Shown here: positions 4,435 to 9,364 of the stretch, in pieces
How positions within the stretch are numbered: position 1 is the stretch's first letter
Layout of the letters: each line of letters opens with the position of its first letter
NCBI GenBank assembly: GCA_964355525.1
Contig: CAYHDY010000005.1
Span: 1 to 39,061 of the forward strand
Source: an uncultured Gammaproteobacteria bacterium
Lineage (GTDB): Bacteria; Patescibacteriota; Patescibacteriia; UBA9934; GWF2-40-263
DNA length: 39,061 nt
Reading direction: 5' to 3'
Program-made: the position numbers and the translations under genes
The notes under the pieces: model-generated
Database searches by the model: none
What the model saw: only the letters and a program-made list of their open reading frames with translations
What the model was told of the DNA's origin: nothing

Positions 4435-4500
4435 TAAAAAATAAAAACACACCCGCACGACAGGAGAACACGGATGTGTTTCTGTCGCGCATGGGTGCGT
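4435..4500 (-). terminator. Long hairpin plus U-tract closing the small-gene array
   Basis: caccc/gggtg, cgacag/ctgtcg and aacac/gtgtt stems, followed on the minus strand by tttttattttt. Confidence 0.65.
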
Positions 4501-4514
4501 GAGGACTTCTTCTG

Positions 4515-4781
4515 CTAGAGCGAACTCCAGACCACGAACGACAAGCGTTCGGGGCGCGTTTTCTTGCACTGGCCGGCATTCGGACGCGGCGCTTCGCACA
4601 CATCCGTCGTGTAGTCGTGGACGGGCATGCTCAACTCCTCCCCCAGCTTTTGCATGTCTTGCATCATCTCGAGGTGCATCTGCGCCCGATCGAGATATCG
4701 ATCTCCTCGGCGCAGTTCTAGGAATTGTGTCGCAAGGAATGCAACGAGTGCCATCGCAATGAGCGATACGGGAACTTTCAT
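4515..4781 (-). CDS. Hypothetical protein with N-terminal TM/signal (array gene 11)
   Basis: 88 aa, GGAGG SD at 4786-4790, GC3-rich codons. Confidence 0.7.
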   Translation of the reverse strand: MKVPVSLIAMALVAFLATQFLELRRGDRYLDRAQMHLEMMQDMQKLGEELSMPVHDYTTDVCEAPRPNAGQCKKTRPERLSFVVWSSL

Positions 4782-4974
4782 GAGGCCTCCAATGTTTCGA
4801 GTTCTATTCCATCAAACGCTATTTGCGCAGACAGTTCTGTCGATTGTTCAAATTTCGAATCACCAACGCTCGATTCAATCAAACGTCTGTGAAAAGGCCC
4901 GAACGATTTTTGATCATTATTCCGGCAGTTCCGGACATGGATCGCAATCGCTCAGGCAGTTGTCGAAAGGACGT

Positions 4975-5556
4975 CTACTTCTTCGGAGCCCAGCAAAACG
5001 CTCGGGTGTACACGTCGCAATCGACTTCGTACTCGGTCGTCTGGCTTCGGTTGAGCTTCATGACGCAAAGCAACGGTTCCTTGCTGTCACCGATGAACAT
5101 TGCGCAGACTTCGCGGAAGGCCCTGCCGCCTATGTTCCAAACGAGCGGGACACACTTCTCGCTTACCAGATCCGGCAGTTTACGGTCGATGTTTTCCTGT
5201 ACCGCCGTCGCCGTCGTATCTTCCTCGAGTTCGAGGTCGAATTCCTCCGGCTTGTTGTCGGCTGCCGTCGGTGTCGAGTCTTCTTCGAGATCGAGATCGA
5301 TCTCTTCCTTGCCGTTGATCAGTCTGAGTGGCACGTCTTCTTCGGTCGTGTTCGTCACCGCAGGCACCAGCGGCTCCGGGTGGTTCGCATAGATGGTCAC
5401 CTTCACGGGCGGCGGAACGTACCTGATCACCGCCTCAGTCGCGCTCTTGTCGGTTTCGTCTTGCGGCAAGGGCGGAATCACGCCTCGTCCGCACGCCGAG
5501 ATGCCGAACGCCAGGACGAGAACAGCGATTACGAAACGGGAAAAGTTGAACTGCAT
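4975..5556 (-). CDS. Putative lipoprotein with acidic tandem repeat and Cys-containing C-terminus (array gene 10)
   Basis: Signal peptide ending in the ISAC lipobox; GGAGG at 5562-5566. Confidence 0.8.
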   Translation of the reverse strand: MQFNFSRFVIAVLVLAFGISACGRGVIPPLPQDETDKSATEAVIRYVPPPVKVTIYANHPEPLVPAVTNTTEEDVPLRLINGKEEIDLDLEEDSTPTAADNKPEEFDLELEEDTTATAVQENIDRKLPDLVSEKCVPLVWNIGGRAFREVCAMFIGDSKEPLLCVMKLNRSQTTEYEVDCDVYTRAFCWAPKK

Positions 5557-5620
5557 GATTGCCTCCTTGAATGTTGGCCGAGGTGCCCCTCGACGTCGAG
5601 CGTGATTGCCGACGATTTTC
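5554..5620 (-). repeat. Array intergenic repeat A, copy 1
   Basis: gttggccgaggtgcccctcgacgtcgagcgtgattgccgacgattt, shared with copies at about 6722 and 8663. Confidence 0.95.
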
Positions 5621-5677
5621 TAACACGATTTCGTCCACCGCAACCCTGCGATGTTCGAACTTCTTCACCTTGCAAAA

Positions 5678-5809
5678 CTAGTACATGATCGCCTTCGCGC
5701 CGGTCTTGTAATTCCACGCGCGGGTATCGCCAACGCAGCGACACCAACCCGTGTATCCGCGACCTTCGGGATCCACTTGGTACTCGAATTTTCCTAGTTG
5801 TTGCCACAT
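5678..5809 (-). CDS. Small hypothetical protein, 43 aa (array gene 9)
   Basis: MWQQLGKFEY... preceded by a GGAGGG SD. The upstream part of the track ORF is the B3 repeat. Confidence 0.6.
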   Translation of the reverse strand: MWQQLGKFEYQVDPEGRGYTGWCRCVGDTRAWNYKTGAKAIMY

Positions 5810-5855
5810 GCTGCCCTCCGTTCTGAACTTGAGTCTTCGATCAAGAGAGTTGATC

Positions 5856-5924
5856 GATTCCTCGAGTAAAGGCTCGACACGATCCGGAATTTCCGAAGCG
5901 TGTCGAGCAAGTTTGGAAAGGAAC
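5856..5924 (-). repeat. Array intergenic repeat B, diverged short copy (B3)
   Basis: gattcctc..taaagg, then the gctcgacacg/cgtgtcgagc hairpin, then agtttggaaaggaac. Colinear with B1/B2 but lacks the second hairpin. Confidence 0.7.
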
Positions 5925-5930
5925 TGCGGA

Positions 5931-6212
5931 CTAGAGCGAGATCGTGTTGCCACTGTGGCCGTGCATCATGACCATGACCATCGCCCCGTTTTTCAGCGTG
6001 AGGCCGCCGAGTGCACGAACGATGGCTCGAGCTTCACGACCAGCATCGTCGGTCGGTTGATGGCTCGTGATCGCGATGCTGTACGGATAGTTCAGCTCAC
6101 TCTTGAGTCGACGTTTGACCTCGTCCTCATCTATGGACGTCCGGACGATGTCGATCGCTGCCACCTTGAGTTCCGCGTCCGTCATGTCATGAAAGGTCTT
6201 GCCTGCATTCAT
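5931..6212 (-). CDS. Hypothetical protein, 93 aa (array gene 8)
   Basis: GAGGA SD at about 6218-6222; GC3-rich. Confidence 0.7.
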   Translation of the reverse strand: MNAGKTFHDMTDAELKVAAIDIVRTSIDEDEVKRRLKSELNYPYSIAITSHQPTDDAGREARAIVRALGGLTLKNGAMVMVMMHGHSGNTISL

Positions 6213-6287
6213 GATTTTCCTCTTCTTGCTCCACTTTGTGAGTCGAGCGTTCGCACGTTCATTTTAAGAATCGGTTGCGATGTACGT

Positions 6288-6707
6288 TCAGCTGCGGCGC
6301 TTGCTCCGGCATTTGTCGATCAACCGTTCGATGGTGGGTCCGAAGGTTTCCTCCATCATATTGTCGAATCGACGTTGCAGAACTTCCAAGGTGTCCAACG
6401 CACTGGGTTCGGAACGCCGCACGACGAGCCATGCACTGAACAGGCCGACGAGTGACAGCAGAGTGTCCTCGTTGCCAGCACCGTCTATGGCGAACAGCAC
6501 GACGACGCCGGTGAAACCGATGATCAACGCAAGTGCGACGAAGCCGATGATGATAGTGGCGACGTTTTCGATTCGCGATATCGCCGGCGGTCGTTTCATG
6601 AGGAGAGATTCCTTCAGCCCCTCCAAGCAGACAGCTGCTATCATGCCGACTACTTGGCCGACTGCGATCACACAAACATAGAACTGCAAAAAGGTGGGGA
6701 ACTGCAT
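6288..6707 (-). CDS. Hypothetical membrane protein, about 3 TM (array gene 7)
   Basis: Three hydrophobic segments; GGAGA SD within repeat A2. Confidence 0.75.
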   Translation of the reverse strand: MQFPTFLQFYVCVIAVGQVVGMIAAVCLEGLKESLLMKRPPAISRIENVATIIIGFVALALIIGFTGVVVLFAIDGAGNEDTLLSLVGLFSAWLVVRRSEPSALDTLEVLQRRFDNMMEETFGPTIERLIDKCRSKRRS

Positions 6708-8114: not shown

Positions 8115-8128
8115 GCCTCACCTCGATA

Positions 8129-8289
8129 TTGAATCCTCAATCCATCCGCAACGTCATTCGTCGCGAAGGTAATAAAGGGCTCAACGCATCCGGGACCATC
8201 CCAGAGTTGTTGAGCAGGCCAGGCAGTTGCCGCGGAGGTTTTTTACGTCTCCGCGGCTGTTGCCTGGCGAGTTTGAGAAAGAACTTTCG
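8129..8289 (-). repeat. Array intergenic repeat B, copy 2
   Basis: 161 bp, only a few substitutions relative to 7211-7371. Confidence 0.97.
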
Positions 8290-8296
8290 GCCGAAC

Positions 8297-8647
8297 CTAC
8301 TTGATGATCACGATGTGCGGAGTCGCCTTCGGAAGGTCTTCCTTGCTGATCGTGATCACTGCATTACCGCTCACGACCTGTCGGATCGTCATGCTGCTGT
8401 CTTTGTGCTGTGTGCAGAAGAACGCAAGGCCACCGAAAGTGCACGGCATGGTCGGATCCATGTTATCGTGCAGAGCCAATCGCTCCTCGCACATCTTCCG
8501 CGCGACGTGCGCGCTCCAGGACGGTTTGTTCCAGTTCTGGTCAGTCACCGCACTGCAGGTTGTCGCCACTTGCTTCTGTCGTTCCTTGTTGACCGAACAA
8601 CCGACGAAGCAAGAAGCTAGAACGATGAGGATGAGAATGTAGCGCAT
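8297..8647 (-). CDS. Putative Cys-containing lipoprotein, 116 aa (array gene 3)
   Basis: Signal peptide with the FVGC lipobox; GGAGG SD at 8653-8657. Confidence 0.8.
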   Translation of the reverse strand: MRYILILIVLASCFVGCSVNKERQKQVATTCSAVTDQNWNKPSWSAHVARKMCEERLALHDNMDPTMPCTFGGLAFFCTQHKDSSMTIRQVVSGNAVITISKEDLPKATPHIVIIK

Positions 8648-8735
8648 GAGTGCCTCCTATTGGTTGGCCGAGGTGCCCCTCGACGTCGAACGAAATTGTC
8701 CGGCGATTTCTGACATTGTTTCGTTCACCACACAT
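8645..8735 (-). repeat. Array intergenic repeat A, copy 3
   Basis: gttggccgaggtgcccctcgacgtcga core. The distal part resembles both A1 (tttcgt.cacc) and A2 (cacacat). Confidence 0.9.
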
Positions 8736-8815
8736 CCGACTGCCGGAGGTGATGTGCGAAGTCGAGTCCTGCAGCTGTGAAGCAGTTGCGGGCAGACTTT
8801 TAAATGGAGGAATGG

Positions 8816-8884
8816 CTAGGATTCAGACCAGACCCAGATCAGGAAGACAATGAAGCCAATACCAACAAGAATTAGGTCGATCAT
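8816..8884 (-). CDS. Possible 22-aa single-TM small protein (array gene 2)
   Basis: MIDLILVGIGFIVFLIWVWSES*, co-oriented with the array and filling the gap; weak SD. Confidence 0.45.
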   Translation of the reverse strand: MIDLILVGIGFIVFLIWVWSES

Positions 8885-8933
8885 GTTGCTTCTGTATGCC
8901 CTGTGTCATGCACTGGGCGTTGAAATGAAGTGC

Positions 8934-9128
8934 TTACTGGCCGGTGTAGATGACACTGCCGTTCTCCACTTGCTCGTCATGTCCCAGGTAGGTCGTGGAT
9001 TCCACTCCGCCGAAATCAACTTTGGAAAGGATGAGATATCCGCCTCCGAAGATGATGATCAACGCCCAGACGATCCCCATGAACAGATCAAACGATTCTT
9101 GTTCGCGCTGACGATAACGGTAGGTCAT
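8934..9128 (-). CDS. Small single-TM protein, 64 aa (array gene 1)
   Basis: MTYRYRQ... with a GAGGA SD at 9136-9140 inside repeat C2. Confidence 0.7.
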   Translation of the reverse strand: MTYRYRQREQESFDLFMGIVWALIIIFGGGYLILSKVDFGGVESTTYLGHDEQVENGSVIYTGQ

Positions 9129-9135
9129 GATGTTG

Positions 9136-9177
9136 TCCTCGCCCCGCGTCACACGCCGGGTATTTTTGTTTTCGAAC
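9136..9177 (-). repeat. Array intergenic repeat C, copy 2
   Basis: tcctcgccccgcgtcacacgccgg..ttgttttcgaac. Confidence 0.75.
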
Positions 9178-9335
9178 CCGTAACAGAAAAACCGATGTTT
9201 ACTTATTTCAAACAAGAGAAATACTCAAACATCGGTTTTGCTATCATCAATCCTTCTTCGCCAACGGCTTCGAAGGACATGATGGGACTGGATAGCACAG
9301 CTCTCTCCCCGAGTTGTAATGATTTTAACTCGTTC

Positions 9336-9364
9336 AATATACCATATTTTGGGGGTTTTGTCAA
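9336..9364 (-). promoter_or_regulatory. Sigma70 promoter driving the array
   Basis: TTGACA (9359-9364), 17 bp, then TATATT (9336-9341) with an extended -10 TG. Confidence 0.8.

Follow-up and report, generated by a model that had tools for sequence, protein, structure and literature searches.

What kind of element places a row of small, unrelated genes inside a polysaccharide cluster and parts them with repeated, structured spacers, and how does its content change? The locus that raises this question lies in a stretch of 39,061 nucleotides that was analysed as a whole (hereafter, the window) and that belongs to a freshwater bacterium with a tiny genome. Inspection of the letters alone (the sequence-only reading) had led to the proposal of a gene capture and shuffling platform whose spacers act as recombination anchors. 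The best reading of the comparisons presented here is that every sufficiently complete genome of the genus carries two leader-controlled hypervariable operons. With moderate confidence, this reading also has the spacers of these operons act at the RNA level and double as recombination homology.

Organization of the block

The block occupies positions 9364-4452 on the minus strand and consists of a promoter, a structured leader, small genes, repeat families A, B and C, and a terminator (Table 1). All of the approximately 11 small genes originally described behind one promoter are present, ten of them well supported and one, a 22-codon ORF, doubtful, and there is one promoter and one terminator. 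Along the block the ORFs measure 64, 22, 116, 118, 108, 131, 139, 93, 43, 193, and 88 codons, and GGAG/GAGG-type Shine-Dalgarno sites precede the ten ORFs, the 22-codon one excepted. Mutual comparison of array ORFs detected no relatedness among the block genes. GC3 of the ten ORFs (22-codon one left out) is 0.66-0.75 compared with 0.47-0.54 in three flanking genes, and a hydrophobic segment is found in 5 of the 10 proteins and a lipobox in 2, in line with the description of the genes as mutually unrelated, GC3-rich, and often encoding membrane proteins or lipoproteins. The uniformly high GC3 of the cargo was counted against the leader-operon reading. GC content is 0.51-0.56 over 4001-9000 (0.54-0.56 over 5001-9000), and elsewhere in the window it is mostly 0.39-0.50, with an exception at 16001-18000 (0.51-0.55). 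The flanks encode polysaccharide functions (DUF4012, three GT4, an FkbM-type methyltransferase, and a Bac_transf sugar transferase), and no recombinase, transposase, or phage gene was detected among the 19 large window ORFs scanned, both as previously noted.

Table 1. Features of the block in order of transcription (window coordinates)
Feature	Position	Strand	Basis or remark
Promoter TTGACA-17-TATATT with TG extension	9336-9364	-	11/12 matches in scan
Leader RNA core, H-type pseudoknot	9238-9322	-	Hairpin and covariation
Leader intrinsic terminator or attenuator	9180-9242	-	Hairpin 9242-9185, 25-nt arms, 84% complementary, then TTTTT
C copy 1, post-terminator 5' UTR of leader	9129-9177	-	Ends at Shine-Dalgarno site of 64-codon gene
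64-aa gene, one hydrophobic segment	8934-9128	-	Family f5
22-codon hydrophobic ORF, doubtful	8816-8884	-	Without Shine-Dalgarno site
Extra spacer module, upstream of first A	8733-8801	-	Commonest spacer module in relatives
A copy 1	8648-8732	-	Extends into Shine-Dalgarno site and ATG of 116-aa gene
116-aa predicted lipoprotein	8297-8647	-	ORF and lipobox
B copy 1	8129-8289	-	Long imperfect hairpin 8268-8218 and two-hairpin R1 core 8222-8132
118-aa gene	7758-8114	-	ORF, Shine-Dalgarno site
C copy 2	7703-7757	-	Local alignment to C copy 1
108-aa gene	7376-7702	-	Family f6
B copy 2	7211-7371	-	95% identical to B copy 1
131-aa gene	6802-7197	-	Patchily distributed family (p131)
A copy 2	6708-6792	-	Repeat comparison, blastn
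139-aa membrane protein, 3 hydrophobic segments	6288-6707	-	ORF and hydrophobicity
93-aa gene	5931-6212	-	Family f3
Diverged B (R1 two-hairpin element 5915-5828)	5810-5930	-	B covariance model, 63.7 bits
43-aa gene	5678-5809	-	ORF, Shine-Dalgarno site
A copy 3	5557-5642	-	Repeat comparison
193-aa predicted lipoprotein	4975-5556	-	ORF and lipobox
88-aa gene, N-terminal hydrophobic segment	4515-4781	-	ORF and hydrophobicity
Terminator-like hairpin and T tail	about 4464-4444	-	Closes block; terminator scan

Promoter and leader

The block promoter is the sole strong sigma-70-like site in 4200-9500, where the scan returned 2 sites compared with 2.4 expected by chance, the other site matching at 9/12 positions. 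Together with the leader, it is common to the heads of all arrays of the genus (alignment of 7 array heads). In the leader, the hairpin GGGGAGAGAGCTGTGCTATCCAGTCCC (9310-9284) exposes a loop, GCTATC, that is complementary to GATAGC at 9245-9240, giving an H-type pseudoknot. This 6-nt partner is kept in 12/12 leader copies; 95.5% of cells are paired compared with 88% in shuffles, a level that 0 of 500 shuffles reached, and compensatory changes occur at 6 of 13 pairs. No match for the leader was found among 4227 Rfam families. The leader terminator is also kept, with compensatory changes in its arms, at the 7 array heads and at 5 further loci. The TCTC tract at its apex complements a GAGAG tract of the leader hairpin, pointing to a putative antiterminator pairing between the two.

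Structure and conservation of the spacers

The three repeat families were located as A (three copies), B (two copies and a diverged one recognized by the covariance model), and C (two copies). The A copies (8732-8663, 6792-6723, and 5642-5573) are 69-77% identical ungapped and 82-90% with gaps (blastn), and the C copies (9177-9133 and 7757-7703) give a local alignment score of 39, compared with a mean of 12.4 (sd 2.1, maximum 22) for shuffles. Most detail was obtained for R1, the B-type two-hairpin spacer, which has 54 matches (52 distinct copies; 53 distinct rows in the alignment). In R1, 90.7% of cells are paired, whereas shuffles reach 70.1% and slid partners 29-48%, and compensatory changes are found at 22 of 24 pairs. 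The spacers are homologous and truly structured, in agreement with the sequence-only reading. G-U pairs outnumber A-C pairs (104 vs 48), which favours the transcribed strand, although the model used to fit the alignment has a preference for G-U of its own and, with related copies, the p value of 0.002 is too favourable. The sense strand also gives the more stable fold in 36 of the 54 matches. This wobble-pair asymmetry suggests a structure formed on the transcribed strand and, with it, a role as RNA.

The positions of R1 are constrained as well. Only 1 of 52 copies overlaps a called ORF by >20 nt, and 36 of 52 end 14-95 nt ahead of the next called start. In the bacterium's own genome, all 14 R1 matches with E <=1e-4 fall in its two arrays, on the gene strand. 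Spacer modules, among them the extra module upstream of the first A (80-93% across species), are 80-93% identical between species compared with 69-79% for the flanking GT4 genes. The promoter scan detected no promoter-like sites inside the spacers.

Arrays across the genus

Searching for the repeats elsewhere revealed a second, larger array in the same genome (contig C9), which contains an A copy and R1 elements and whose head shares the promoter and leader with the block (74% identical over 216 nt). Of the 7 remaining congeneric genomes, 6 have arrays and R1 elements, the exception being a 56%-complete genome, whereas R1 elements were found in 0 of 29 genomes from other genera of the family. 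In G001 and G006, and judging from partial contigs apparently also in G002, arrays fill the site that the block has in the window, between the same two GT4 genes, and there the DNA-level match is limited to the promoter, the leader, and the spacer modules. The make-up of the modules varies between species at one site. Where contigs allow a check, the arrays occupy two conserved, fixed chromosomal sites.

Gene turnover and possible recombination

Within this stable frame the genes change. Across 11 arrays from 7 genomes, 76 of 128 array ORFs have no relative in other arrays, contents differ almost completely between species, and the order of gene families varies among genomes; relatives of the block share neither its gene content nor its gene order. 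The syntenic array in G001 begins with a homologue of the 64-aa gene, and homologues of the 93-aa gene are present in arrays of G006 and G007. Two families (f6 and f15) occupy array a in one species and array b in another. The 108-aa gene of f6 has a homologue in G006 (59% identical) that comes first behind the leader, but in the other array; only one other relative was found among 5.8 billion proteins. The 131-aa protein, for which a confident fold is predicted that matches no solved structure, belongs to a family that 8 of the 301 class genomes carry, no two of them from one genus. A blastp comparison with the called ORFs of all 11 arrays detected no relative of it, and neither did tblastn against arrays from six congeners, a set that lacked the syntenic loci of G001, G006, and G002. 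Families shared between species are only 36-59% identical, so recent exchange is not caught by these comparisons.

One environmental contig (run X3) joins 7322 to 8241, so that exactly one 918-base B-to-B unit is absent. The junction carries 43 shared letters, and along 1732 nt the contig matches with 0 mismatches. X3 covers the skipped part at a depth of 0 to 1.6, compared with 3.76 for the contig itself. Such a deletion would be the expected product of ordinary homologous recombination between 161-base direct repeats. However, it is seen in one contig, at a depth of 3.8, from a de Bruijn-graph assembly, where the 43-nt shared tract could permit a jump between repeats, so the apparent loss may instead reflect an assembly path. 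The flanks of 57 homologous pairs are more similar upstream in 29 cases and downstream in 26, indicating no preferential travel with either gene. Altogether, the turnover, the relocation, and the loss of a unit in X3 agree with the shuffling part of the original proposal, and the absent B-to-B unit agrees with spacers as anchors to the extent that one low-depth contig can. Identical gene order and content in relatives, repeats restricted to this block, or a recognizable prophage remnant would have spoken against that proposal, and none of these was seen. For active capture no evidence was obtained, and a dedicated capture mechanism is unproven.

Proposed mechanism

In the favoured reading, transcription would begin at the single near-consensus promoter, and RNA polymerase would first meet the leader, with its pseudoknotted hairpin and then its intrinsic terminator. 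The leader most likely decides read-through, by riboswitch-like or factor-dependent attenuation. Downstream, the small accessory genes, presumably on a single transcript, would rely on their Shine-Dalgarno sites and be parted by spacers folding on that transcript, where these may serve as processing marks, as cistron-end protection, or as translation start context. Because they are directly repeated within and between the two arrays, the spacers would also supply homology, and ordinary recombination, including with DNA taken up from relatives, could delete, duplicate, move, and replace gene units, which may be the cause of the turnover. The outcome would be integron-like, yet made without integrase or attC sites.

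Alternative explanations

The spacers could instead be selfish REP- or MITE-like repeats in two variable islands, with no expression role and with ordinary island turnover. This is considered unlikely. The genome does contain a genome-wide hairpin family with about 20 copies, and the species-dependent module make-up at the same site would suit such repeats. However, R1 and A copies do not occur outside the arrays and always lie on the gene strand, at a set distance from stop and start codons, and spacer modules are better conserved between species than neighbouring essential-looking genes. Moreover, the published SRM search motif occurs once in the whole genome and not at all in the arrays, and G000 has no above-threshold RAYT-type gene.

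There is little chance, in our view, that the arrays form a site-specific cassette platform (integron-like or rAID-like) in which the spacer hairpins are DNA sites for a recombinase encoded elsewhere. A co-oriented, promoterless array behind one promoter, spacers that keep structure rather than sequence, families that relocate between the two arrays, and the precise unit loss in one environmental contig would all be expected of it, and the first stem of B copies 1 and 2 (GCTCAAC...GTTGAGC) fits the attC R''/R' consensus. Against this, just two RYYYAAC...GTTRRRY inverted pairs spaced 40-150 nt were found in 73.5 kb of arrays, and only 37 nt separate the B stems, which is below the attC size range. 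The spacers fail the attC test, in line with the sequence-only reading that the repeats are neither attC sites nor promoters. Integron integrase uses the bottom strand, and a single-stranded DNA site would fold opposite to the transcribed strand; the wobble pairs favour the sense strand. A co-occurring enzyme had been suggested as a search target, but no tyrosine recombinase, HUH protein, or reverse transcriptase is linked to any array in 8 genomes: one XerC/D-like gene (PF00589) lies on contig C2 of G000 and none adjoins an array, a Y1 HUH protein appears only below cut-off in G000 and was not found in 3 of the 8 genomes, and reverse transcriptase genes, present in 5 of 8, are 40-50 kb away from the arrays.

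Hardly probable is a model in which spacer hairpins work as weak terminators and the leader supplies an EAR- or put-type processive antitermination signal, so that the array would be read through only once the leader has modified RNA polymerase. The CTTTTCC that comes after the first R1 hairpin, the genome's common terminator-type hairpin in three spacers of the second array, and conservation of the leader ahead of long multi-hairpin operons are compatible with this model. However, the T tract has only 4 T, the terminator scan of the gene strand detected none inside the array, the leader's own terminator fits plain attenuation, and neither EAR nor any other Rfam family was matched.

A prophage or other mobile-element remnant, suggested by the skewed composition, the small genes without known function, and Shine-Dalgarno sites that are strong where those of three host genes examined next to the block are not, is very improbable: nothing phage-like was found (0/10 block proteins match PHROGs, and 4/117 array proteins match Pfam, all by a metal-binding lipoprotein motif), integrase and att-like ends are absent, viral contigs give only single, chance-level matches to spacer core motifs, and the site lies between the same housekeeping-type genes in G001, G006, and apparently G002, with flanks 69-79% identical.

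Comparison with known systems

The arrays share traits with several known systems. Riboswitch and attenuator leaders with an H-type pseudoknot are promoter-proximal and are followed by an intrinsic terminator carrying a tract complementary to the aptamer-like part. The leader of the arrays likewise has a conserved pseudoknot and then an intrinsic terminator complementary to its aptamer-like part but, unlike known riboswitches, it matches no Rfam family and precedes genes without assigned function. In T4-like phages the PeSL repeats, and in cluster K mycobacteriophages the start-associated sequences, are situated between small genes without known function, some at the start codon. The repeats described here also lie between small genes, some touching the start codon, but they contain no promoter-like sites and are chromosomal and genus-conserved, with nothing phage-like nearby.

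CALIN are integron cassette arrays without integrase, made of promoterless, co-oriented small genes, mostly unknown, with structured repeats and high turnover. The present arrays resemble them in their co-oriented promoterless small genes behind one promoter, structured repeats, and high turnover. They differ in the missing attC signature, in hairpins that favour the sense strand, and in their two fixed chromosomal sites genus-wide, each array being preceded by a presumably regulatory leader.

Hairpin repeats between genes are also known as REP/BIME mRNA stabilizers and as the dRS3/NTS repeats of Neisseria, for which earlier authors are cited as proposing recombination homology near variable genes (Chenal et al. 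2025, PMC11893778). Those repeats are dispersed throughout the genome and linked to RAYT or Ssn nucleases (PMC11893778), whereas the present ones are array-confined, with 0 SRM motif matches in the arrays and no above-threshold Y1 gene in G000.

The rAID-1 clusters of Bacteroidales are defined by a XerD-like recombinase gene at the head (Ross et al., bioRxiv 10.1101/471110), which is absent here. The rAID-1 clusters also carry recognizable immunity genes (10.1101/471110), compared with 0 Pfam immunity matches among 117 array proteins here, and the sections of the preprint consulted describe no leader like the pseudoknot-terminator leader of the present arrays. Both systems have long arrays of co-directional small genes, contents that vary between strains or species, repetitive intergenic sequences ('reminiscent of integrons' in rAID-1), and a GC content departing from the genome, lower in rAID-1 and higher here. 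Without its enzyme and its sites, the arrays nevertheless resemble an integron.

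Anatomy of the array in the window

The sequence-only reading had described a block of small co-oriented genes behind one promoter, with spacers that are not promoters themselves, in a window devoid of recombinase, transposase and phage genes, and this description holds. Its map of the block was reproduced from a minus-strand reading of 9450-4300, an ORF list and a repeat finder. A single strong promoter was recovered (see the table), promoter-like sites in the scan numbered 2 vs 2.4 in shuffles, with internal ones not above chance and none in the spacers, and recombinase, transposase and phage genes are absent from the 19 large window ORFs that were scanned. 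Ribosome-binding sites of the GGAG/GAGG type precede ten array genes, and the 22-codon ORF, which has none, is doubtful. GC3 is 0.66-0.75 in these ten genes vs 0.47-0.54 in the two flanking glycosyltransferase genes and the methyltransferase gene, and GC content is 0.51-0.56 in the block (4001-9000) vs mostly 0.39-0.50 in the rest of the window. Composition alone does not define the system, because further GC3-rich genes exist outside the arrays. Repeat A is present in three copies and repeat B in two (95% identity), with a diverged B that fits the same model, while the C repeat gives a local alignment score of 39 (shuffled maximum 22).

The array is flanked by polysaccharide genes (DUF4012, three GT4 glycosyltransferases, an FkbM-type methyltransferase and a Bac_transf sugar transferase). 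At the syntenic site in two congeners, G001 and G006, no DNA matches the methyltransferase gene; in G006 the promoter directly follows the GT4 gene, and in G001 about 0.4 kb lies in between. On the other side, a 62-nt stretch recurs in the genome at C15:3878, C16:19542 and C1:28016, and more weakly at C15:10329 and C8:4835; one contig of environmental run X2 has 73 other bases in place of 31 within it.

Coordinates of features in the window
Feature	Position	Strand	Basis or remark
Promoter TTGACA-17-TATATT, upstream TG	9364-9336	-	Consensus scan; sole strong promoter of the block
Further spacer module	8801-8733	-	Directly before the first A
Terminator-like hairpin	4464-4452	gene strand (-)	Terminator scan
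131-aa protein	6802-7197		
FkbM-type methyltransferase gene	9425-10234		Between array promoter and upstream GT4 gene; GC3 0.47
62-nt stretch	4342-4409		Between array terminator and next glycosyltransferase gene
686-aa protein with T4SS_pilin domain	23225-25285		Adjoins a DsbA-like thioredoxin gene
Hairpin GTAATA-GRCGGGGTCCCCWGACCCCGY	33444-33455		Also in about 19 other places

A second array and its spread in the genus

Comparison of the block with the whole genome (1.03 Mb, 91% complete) by blastn, in the spirit of the search for the repeats that had been proposed from the sequence, revealed a second locus on contig C9. Its promoter and leader match those of the window at 74% over 216 nt, it likewise has an A copy and a diverged-B element, and it is longer, with 18 ORFs called. 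There a two-hairpin element (stem 1 GAGCCTTTTCCAGAGATC, stem 2 GATCTGCGAAAG) recurs at least 11 times, and the window B repeats are a diverged form of it. A covariance model of this B-type element, R1, gave 14 matches in the window's genome (E <= 1e-4), all on the gene strand inside the two arrays. Clustered matches were found in 6/7 other genomes of the genus, the one without them being 56% complete. The model found nothing in 29 genomes of other genera in the family, and a single weak match came from the other families of the order (24 genomes).

Both sites can be recognized in relatives. At the window's site (array a), orthologues of the bracketing GT4 pair enclose GC-rich blocks of 6.6-8 kb in G001 and G006, and in G002, on a short contig, array sequence lies immediately upstream of the GT4 orthologue. 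At the C9 site (array b), one side carries rpsP and a CDP-alcohol-transferase-like gene (names read from translations, not from a family scan), and the other a conserved series of unknown genes with a DHH/DHHA1 gene and clpP at its end; this downstream series is common to G001, G003 and G005, and partly to G002. Paired arrays are a trait of the genus. Outside the arrays, the window's genome also has GC-rich islands with GC3-rich genes at C4:35501-39500, C17:12501-15500, C15:17501-21500 and C28:3001-5500 and on C32. The C28 island includes two lipoprotein-like genes, close to which 30 nt match the array promoter.

Cargo and its turnover

Comparison of content and order across relatives, also suggested by the earlier reading, showed that gene content and family order differ between species. 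Between arrays a of the window's genome, G001 and G006, DNA matches are limited to the promoter, the leader and spacer modules, the coding parts having no match. Among 128 ORFs from 11 arrays in 7 genomes, called by a simple rule of our own (ribosome-binding site plus GC3) that is imperfect outside arrays, 76 have no relative in other arrays at E 1e-3. For example, the order of protein families in array b is f7-f8-f2-f9-f10-f1-f1-f4 in the window's genome and f6-f7-f10-f1-f2-f15-f9-f4 in G006. Two families are found in array a of one species and in array b of another, among them that of the window's 108-aa gene: its G006 member comes first behind the array b leader and has a C-like 5' region. 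Two local traces of change were also seen. Within the C9 array, a 221-nt stretch (locus L007, 4679-4899 vs 5626-5846), 99% identical between adjacent units, spans the spacer and the signal-peptide start of two otherwise diverged lipoprotein genes with the MopE motif, which suggests recent gene conversion or duplication within the array. In G006, locus L019 has two extra genes at 7320-8035 between two genes that adjoin each other on C9; the second extra gene and the conserved gene upstream both end in GCGGCGTAG, which may be a footprint of unit insertion.

A hydrophobic segment is present in 53/128 array ORFs, and a lipobox-like motif was found by regex in 10/128, a count that misses two evident lipoproteins of the second array. 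Pfam matched 4/117 array proteins, each time with PF11617 (MopE-type metal-binding motif), and gave only weak matches (E 0.1 to 0.5) for the ten window proteins, for which NCBIfam gave none. PADLOC returned 3 marginal single matches and nothing more, and searches of the ESM Atlas with the 108-aa and 131-aa proteins gave no usable match.

The 131-aa protein has 269 representative relatives and a confident predicted model (mean pLDDT 96.1), for which Foldseek found no solved structure at E <= 0.001; a PDB profile search with the family gave only recA-fusion noise. Within the class, the family was found in 8/301 genomes, no two of them from one genus. It was not found by tblastn in the congener arrays fetched by then, nor by blastp among the ORFs of all 11 arrays. 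Its homologues are GC3-rich (0.65-0.88) at 6/7 other loci, and one was labelled Patescibacteria by its source. In six other genera the loci have no repeated spacers within about 1.5 kb; the array architecture does not travel with this gene. The patchy distribution fits recruitment from a wider accessory pool, no route being implied. Eight matches to residues 22-90 are also found along a 1939-aa protein composed of F5/8 type C repeats.

A possible deletion variant in environmental sequences

At least half of the words of the block were found in each of four DNA runs from two freshwater/lake studies, whose contigs over 3000-11000 mostly agree with the window; in two RNA runs these words were nearly absent, and none of the runs listed for the block is of RNA. 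In run X3, a contig of 1732 nt (depth 3.76, 0 mismatches) passes directly from 7322 to 8241, thereby omitting 918 bases, the exact B-to-B spacing, with 43 letters common at the joint. It fits a strain in which recombination between B repeats may have removed the 118-aa and 108-aa genes. Depth across the omitted part, in four bins, is 1.61, 1.21, 0 and 1.39 in this run; given this depth and the graph-assembled contigs, the junction may be an assembly artefact.

Spacers as putative RNA elements

The R1 model gathered 54 matches from 12 loci (53 distinct rows), in which 90.7% of cells are paired vs 70.1% in shuffles and compensatory changes occur at 22/24 pairs (slid controls 29-48%), figures from an alignment fitted to the model and hence biased towards structure. 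When the 13 seed copies were run independently through MAFFT/RNAalifold, compensatory changes were found at 16/24 pairs. G-U wobbles exceed A-C (104 vs 48) and the sense strand is the more stable in 36/54 folds, which together favor structure on the transcribed strand, within the limits that the model prefers G-U and that the copies are kin. Among 52 distinct copies, one overlaps a called ORF by >20 nt, 38 start no more than 75 nt past the preceding called stop, and 36 end 14-95 nt ahead of the following called start, larger distances being mostly due to a crude gene caller. Within the window, 16-18 nt separate the end of the R1 core from the ATG, and A extends into the ribosome-binding site and ATG. 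Comparison of spacer flanks did not separate ownership by the upstream gene from ownership by the downstream gene.

The further spacer module listed in the table is the commonest one in relatives, with 7 copies in the syntenic array of G001, and is 80-93% identical across species vs 69-79% for the flanking GT4 genes. Wider scans for spacer core motifs stayed at chance level. A 16-mer spacer core had at least 120 single matches in genome contigs of unrelated taxa, none with two copies among the matches listed, and a 15-mer core had 43 single matches in viral contigs. The 21-nt A core matched one viral contig exactly, which was attributed to chance, the match lying inside a coding region with no R1 element there; that contig is strongly G+C-rich, judging by translated ORFs. 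A separate hairpin, GTAATA-GRCGGGGTCCCCWGACCCCGY, often followed by TTTTG, is scattered genome-wide and resembles either a standard terminator of this organism or a dispersed repeat. Spacers of the second array contain it three times, in each case lacking the T tail.

The leader and its other loci

The promoter and a hairpin GGGGAGAGAGCTGNGCTATCCAGTCCC can be aligned across seven array heads, where the order is the hairpin, 5-48 nt, a GATAGCAAA box, a long A/U-rich hairpin and a T run. Allowing up to 3 mismatches, the hairpin occurs one to four times per genome in 5/6 sampled genomes of the genus, including the window's, and in none of 55 genomes from other genera of the family. The hairpin loop finds a 6-nt complement downstream in 12/12 copies examined, forming a pseudoknot whose common loop and partner, GCTATC/GATAGC, vary together (GTTGTC/GACAAC, GCTATT/AATAGC, GCGATC/GATCGC). 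Pairing reaches 95.5% of cells vs 88.0% in shuffles (0/500 as high), even with row G006a, misaligned in the partner columns, scored as unpaired, and two-sided changes are found at 6/13 pairs (slid controls pair 29-44%). The terminator arms also covary (CCGATG/CATCGG, CCAATGA/TCATTGG), and the apex keeps a TCTC tract complementary to a GAGAG tract of the hairpin, which might allow antiterminator pairing.

The layout is thus of the attenuation type, running from promoter through a conserved structured domain and an intrinsic terminator to the first gene, and with this order of parts the leader may act as a transcription-attenuation switch. Neither at the gathering score nor at E <= 1 does any Rfam family match the leader; with Rfam 15, only 4 tRNAs in the whole window reach the gathering score, and 4300-9450 gives nothing but sub-threshold microRNA and PhrS noise. 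R1 and the leader make two new RNA element families, and the leader is a candidate for a new class of cis-regulatory RNA.

The leader hairpin also heads two further loci in the window's genome, on contigs C43 and C40. Non-array loci with the promoter-pseudoknot-terminator leader are at C40:2589-2615 and C43:2757-2783 there, and at C4:67230 in G001, C8:6282 in G005 and C64:5952 in G007. The genes behind it at C40, C43 and the G001 locus are GC3-rich and match no Pfam family, and thus offer no hint of the signal. The C40-type loci (C40 and those of G001 and G007) have a second GGGGAGAGAGC-like box past the terminator.

Interpretation

The reading favored here, held with a little more confidence than doubt, is a leader-attenuated polycistronic operon: the leader would attenuate the operon, the spacers would act on RNA and, as direct repeats, would lend the homology by which general recombination reshuffles the units. 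The cassette-like platform first proposed from the sequence is kept in part. Cassette-like behavior finds support in the species comparison and in one population variant. In character the spacers come closer to RNA elements than to recombination sites, and the mechanism of a capture platform is unproven.

The spacers might instead be selfish repeats, a reading considered unlikely; the R1 and A copies of the genome are confined to the two arrays. Reshuffling by a hidden site-specific system is thought quite unlikely. Recombinases, HUH proteins and reverse transcriptases, whose search the sequence-only reading had advised, are present in the genus. PF00589 has a single match in the window's genome, on contig C2, and none beside any array in 8 genomes; each genome has one XerC/D-like gene, G001 and G006 having one or two in addition, and none adjoins an array. 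Y1 HUH proteins score above cut-off in 4/8 genomes, and in the window's genome PF01797 reaches 19.4 bits, under the 23-bit cut-off. Reverse transcriptases occur in 5/8 genomes, 40-50 kb from array b where contigs permit. Spacer hairpins could also belong to a design of weak terminators with antitermination, which is improbable. A prophage remnant was rejected (PHROGs 0/10 for the ten window proteins, no integrase by the arrays, no phage gene among the large window ORFs), and a mobile-element remnant in general is highly improbable.

Beyond the leader-attenuated operon, a bolder view is offered tentatively, with doubt outweighing belief: an integrase-free equivalent of the integron in ultra-small bacteria, with two chromosomal docking operons, in which standardized, structured spacers would be both mRNA expression adaptors and portable homology arms. 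DNA taken up from relatives would be slotted in, swapped between arrays or dropped, and a previously undescribed, riboswitch-like pseudoknot leader would switch the whole set and at least two further loci of unknown genes. Few routes are known by which ultra-small host-dependent bacteria gain or shuffle accessory genes, and most small proteins that they encode lack an explanation. Here the system can be compared across genomes, with two fixed sites in each, a common leader, spacer RNA elements whose covariation is unusually clear and cargo turnover by species. It opens three questions to testing: whether repeats and general recombination suffice for cassette-like gene flux, which signal switches the arrays on and what the cargo does, for example the 131-aa protein with its confident fold and no solved relative.

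Comparison with known systems

In integrons, attC sites carry an inverted RYYYAAC/GTTRRRY pair about 57-141 nt apart, and CALIN may be without an IntI-type tyrosine recombinase. Like integrons and CALIN, the window array has co-oriented promoterless genes behind one promoter; unlike integrons, it has no adjacent IntI-type tyrosine recombinase, and unlike both, the arrays lack the attC signature as judged by regex on this consensus. Consistent with the earlier statement that the repeats are not attC sites, an R''/R' regex from this consensus (up to 1 arm mismatch, 40-150 nt) gave 2 matches in 73.5 kb from 11 arrays, shuffles giving 0.04-0.46 per array; the B stems reading GCTCAAC...GTTGAGC are spaced 37 nt. 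The arrays also differ from REP/REPIN elements with RAYT, R1 and A being array-confined rather than dispersed and the Y1 HUH match of the window's genome sub-threshold. The Ssn-related NTS/SRM system was rejected as a match, its published degenerate SRM motif (PMC11893778) occurring 0 times in the arrays and once in the 1.03-Mb genome. No description of such arrays in Patescibacteria was found in the literature searched, which had partial coverage and excluded supplements.

Among described systems the closest analogue is rAID-1 of Bacteroidales (10.1101/471110). Its arrays have skewed GC, variable content and intergenic repeats resembling those of integrons; a XerD-like recombinase gene at the 5' end is its defining feature, and it carries recognizable immunity genes. 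The arrays here have no XerD-like gene at their 5' ends, the upstream genes being a GT4 or methyltransferase gene for array a and rpsP with the CDP-alcohol-transferase-like gene for array b, and their cargo has no immunity-gene homology by Pfam and PADLOC. They share with rAID-1 co-directional genes, repetitive intergenic sequences and a skewed GC content, the skew here being upward.
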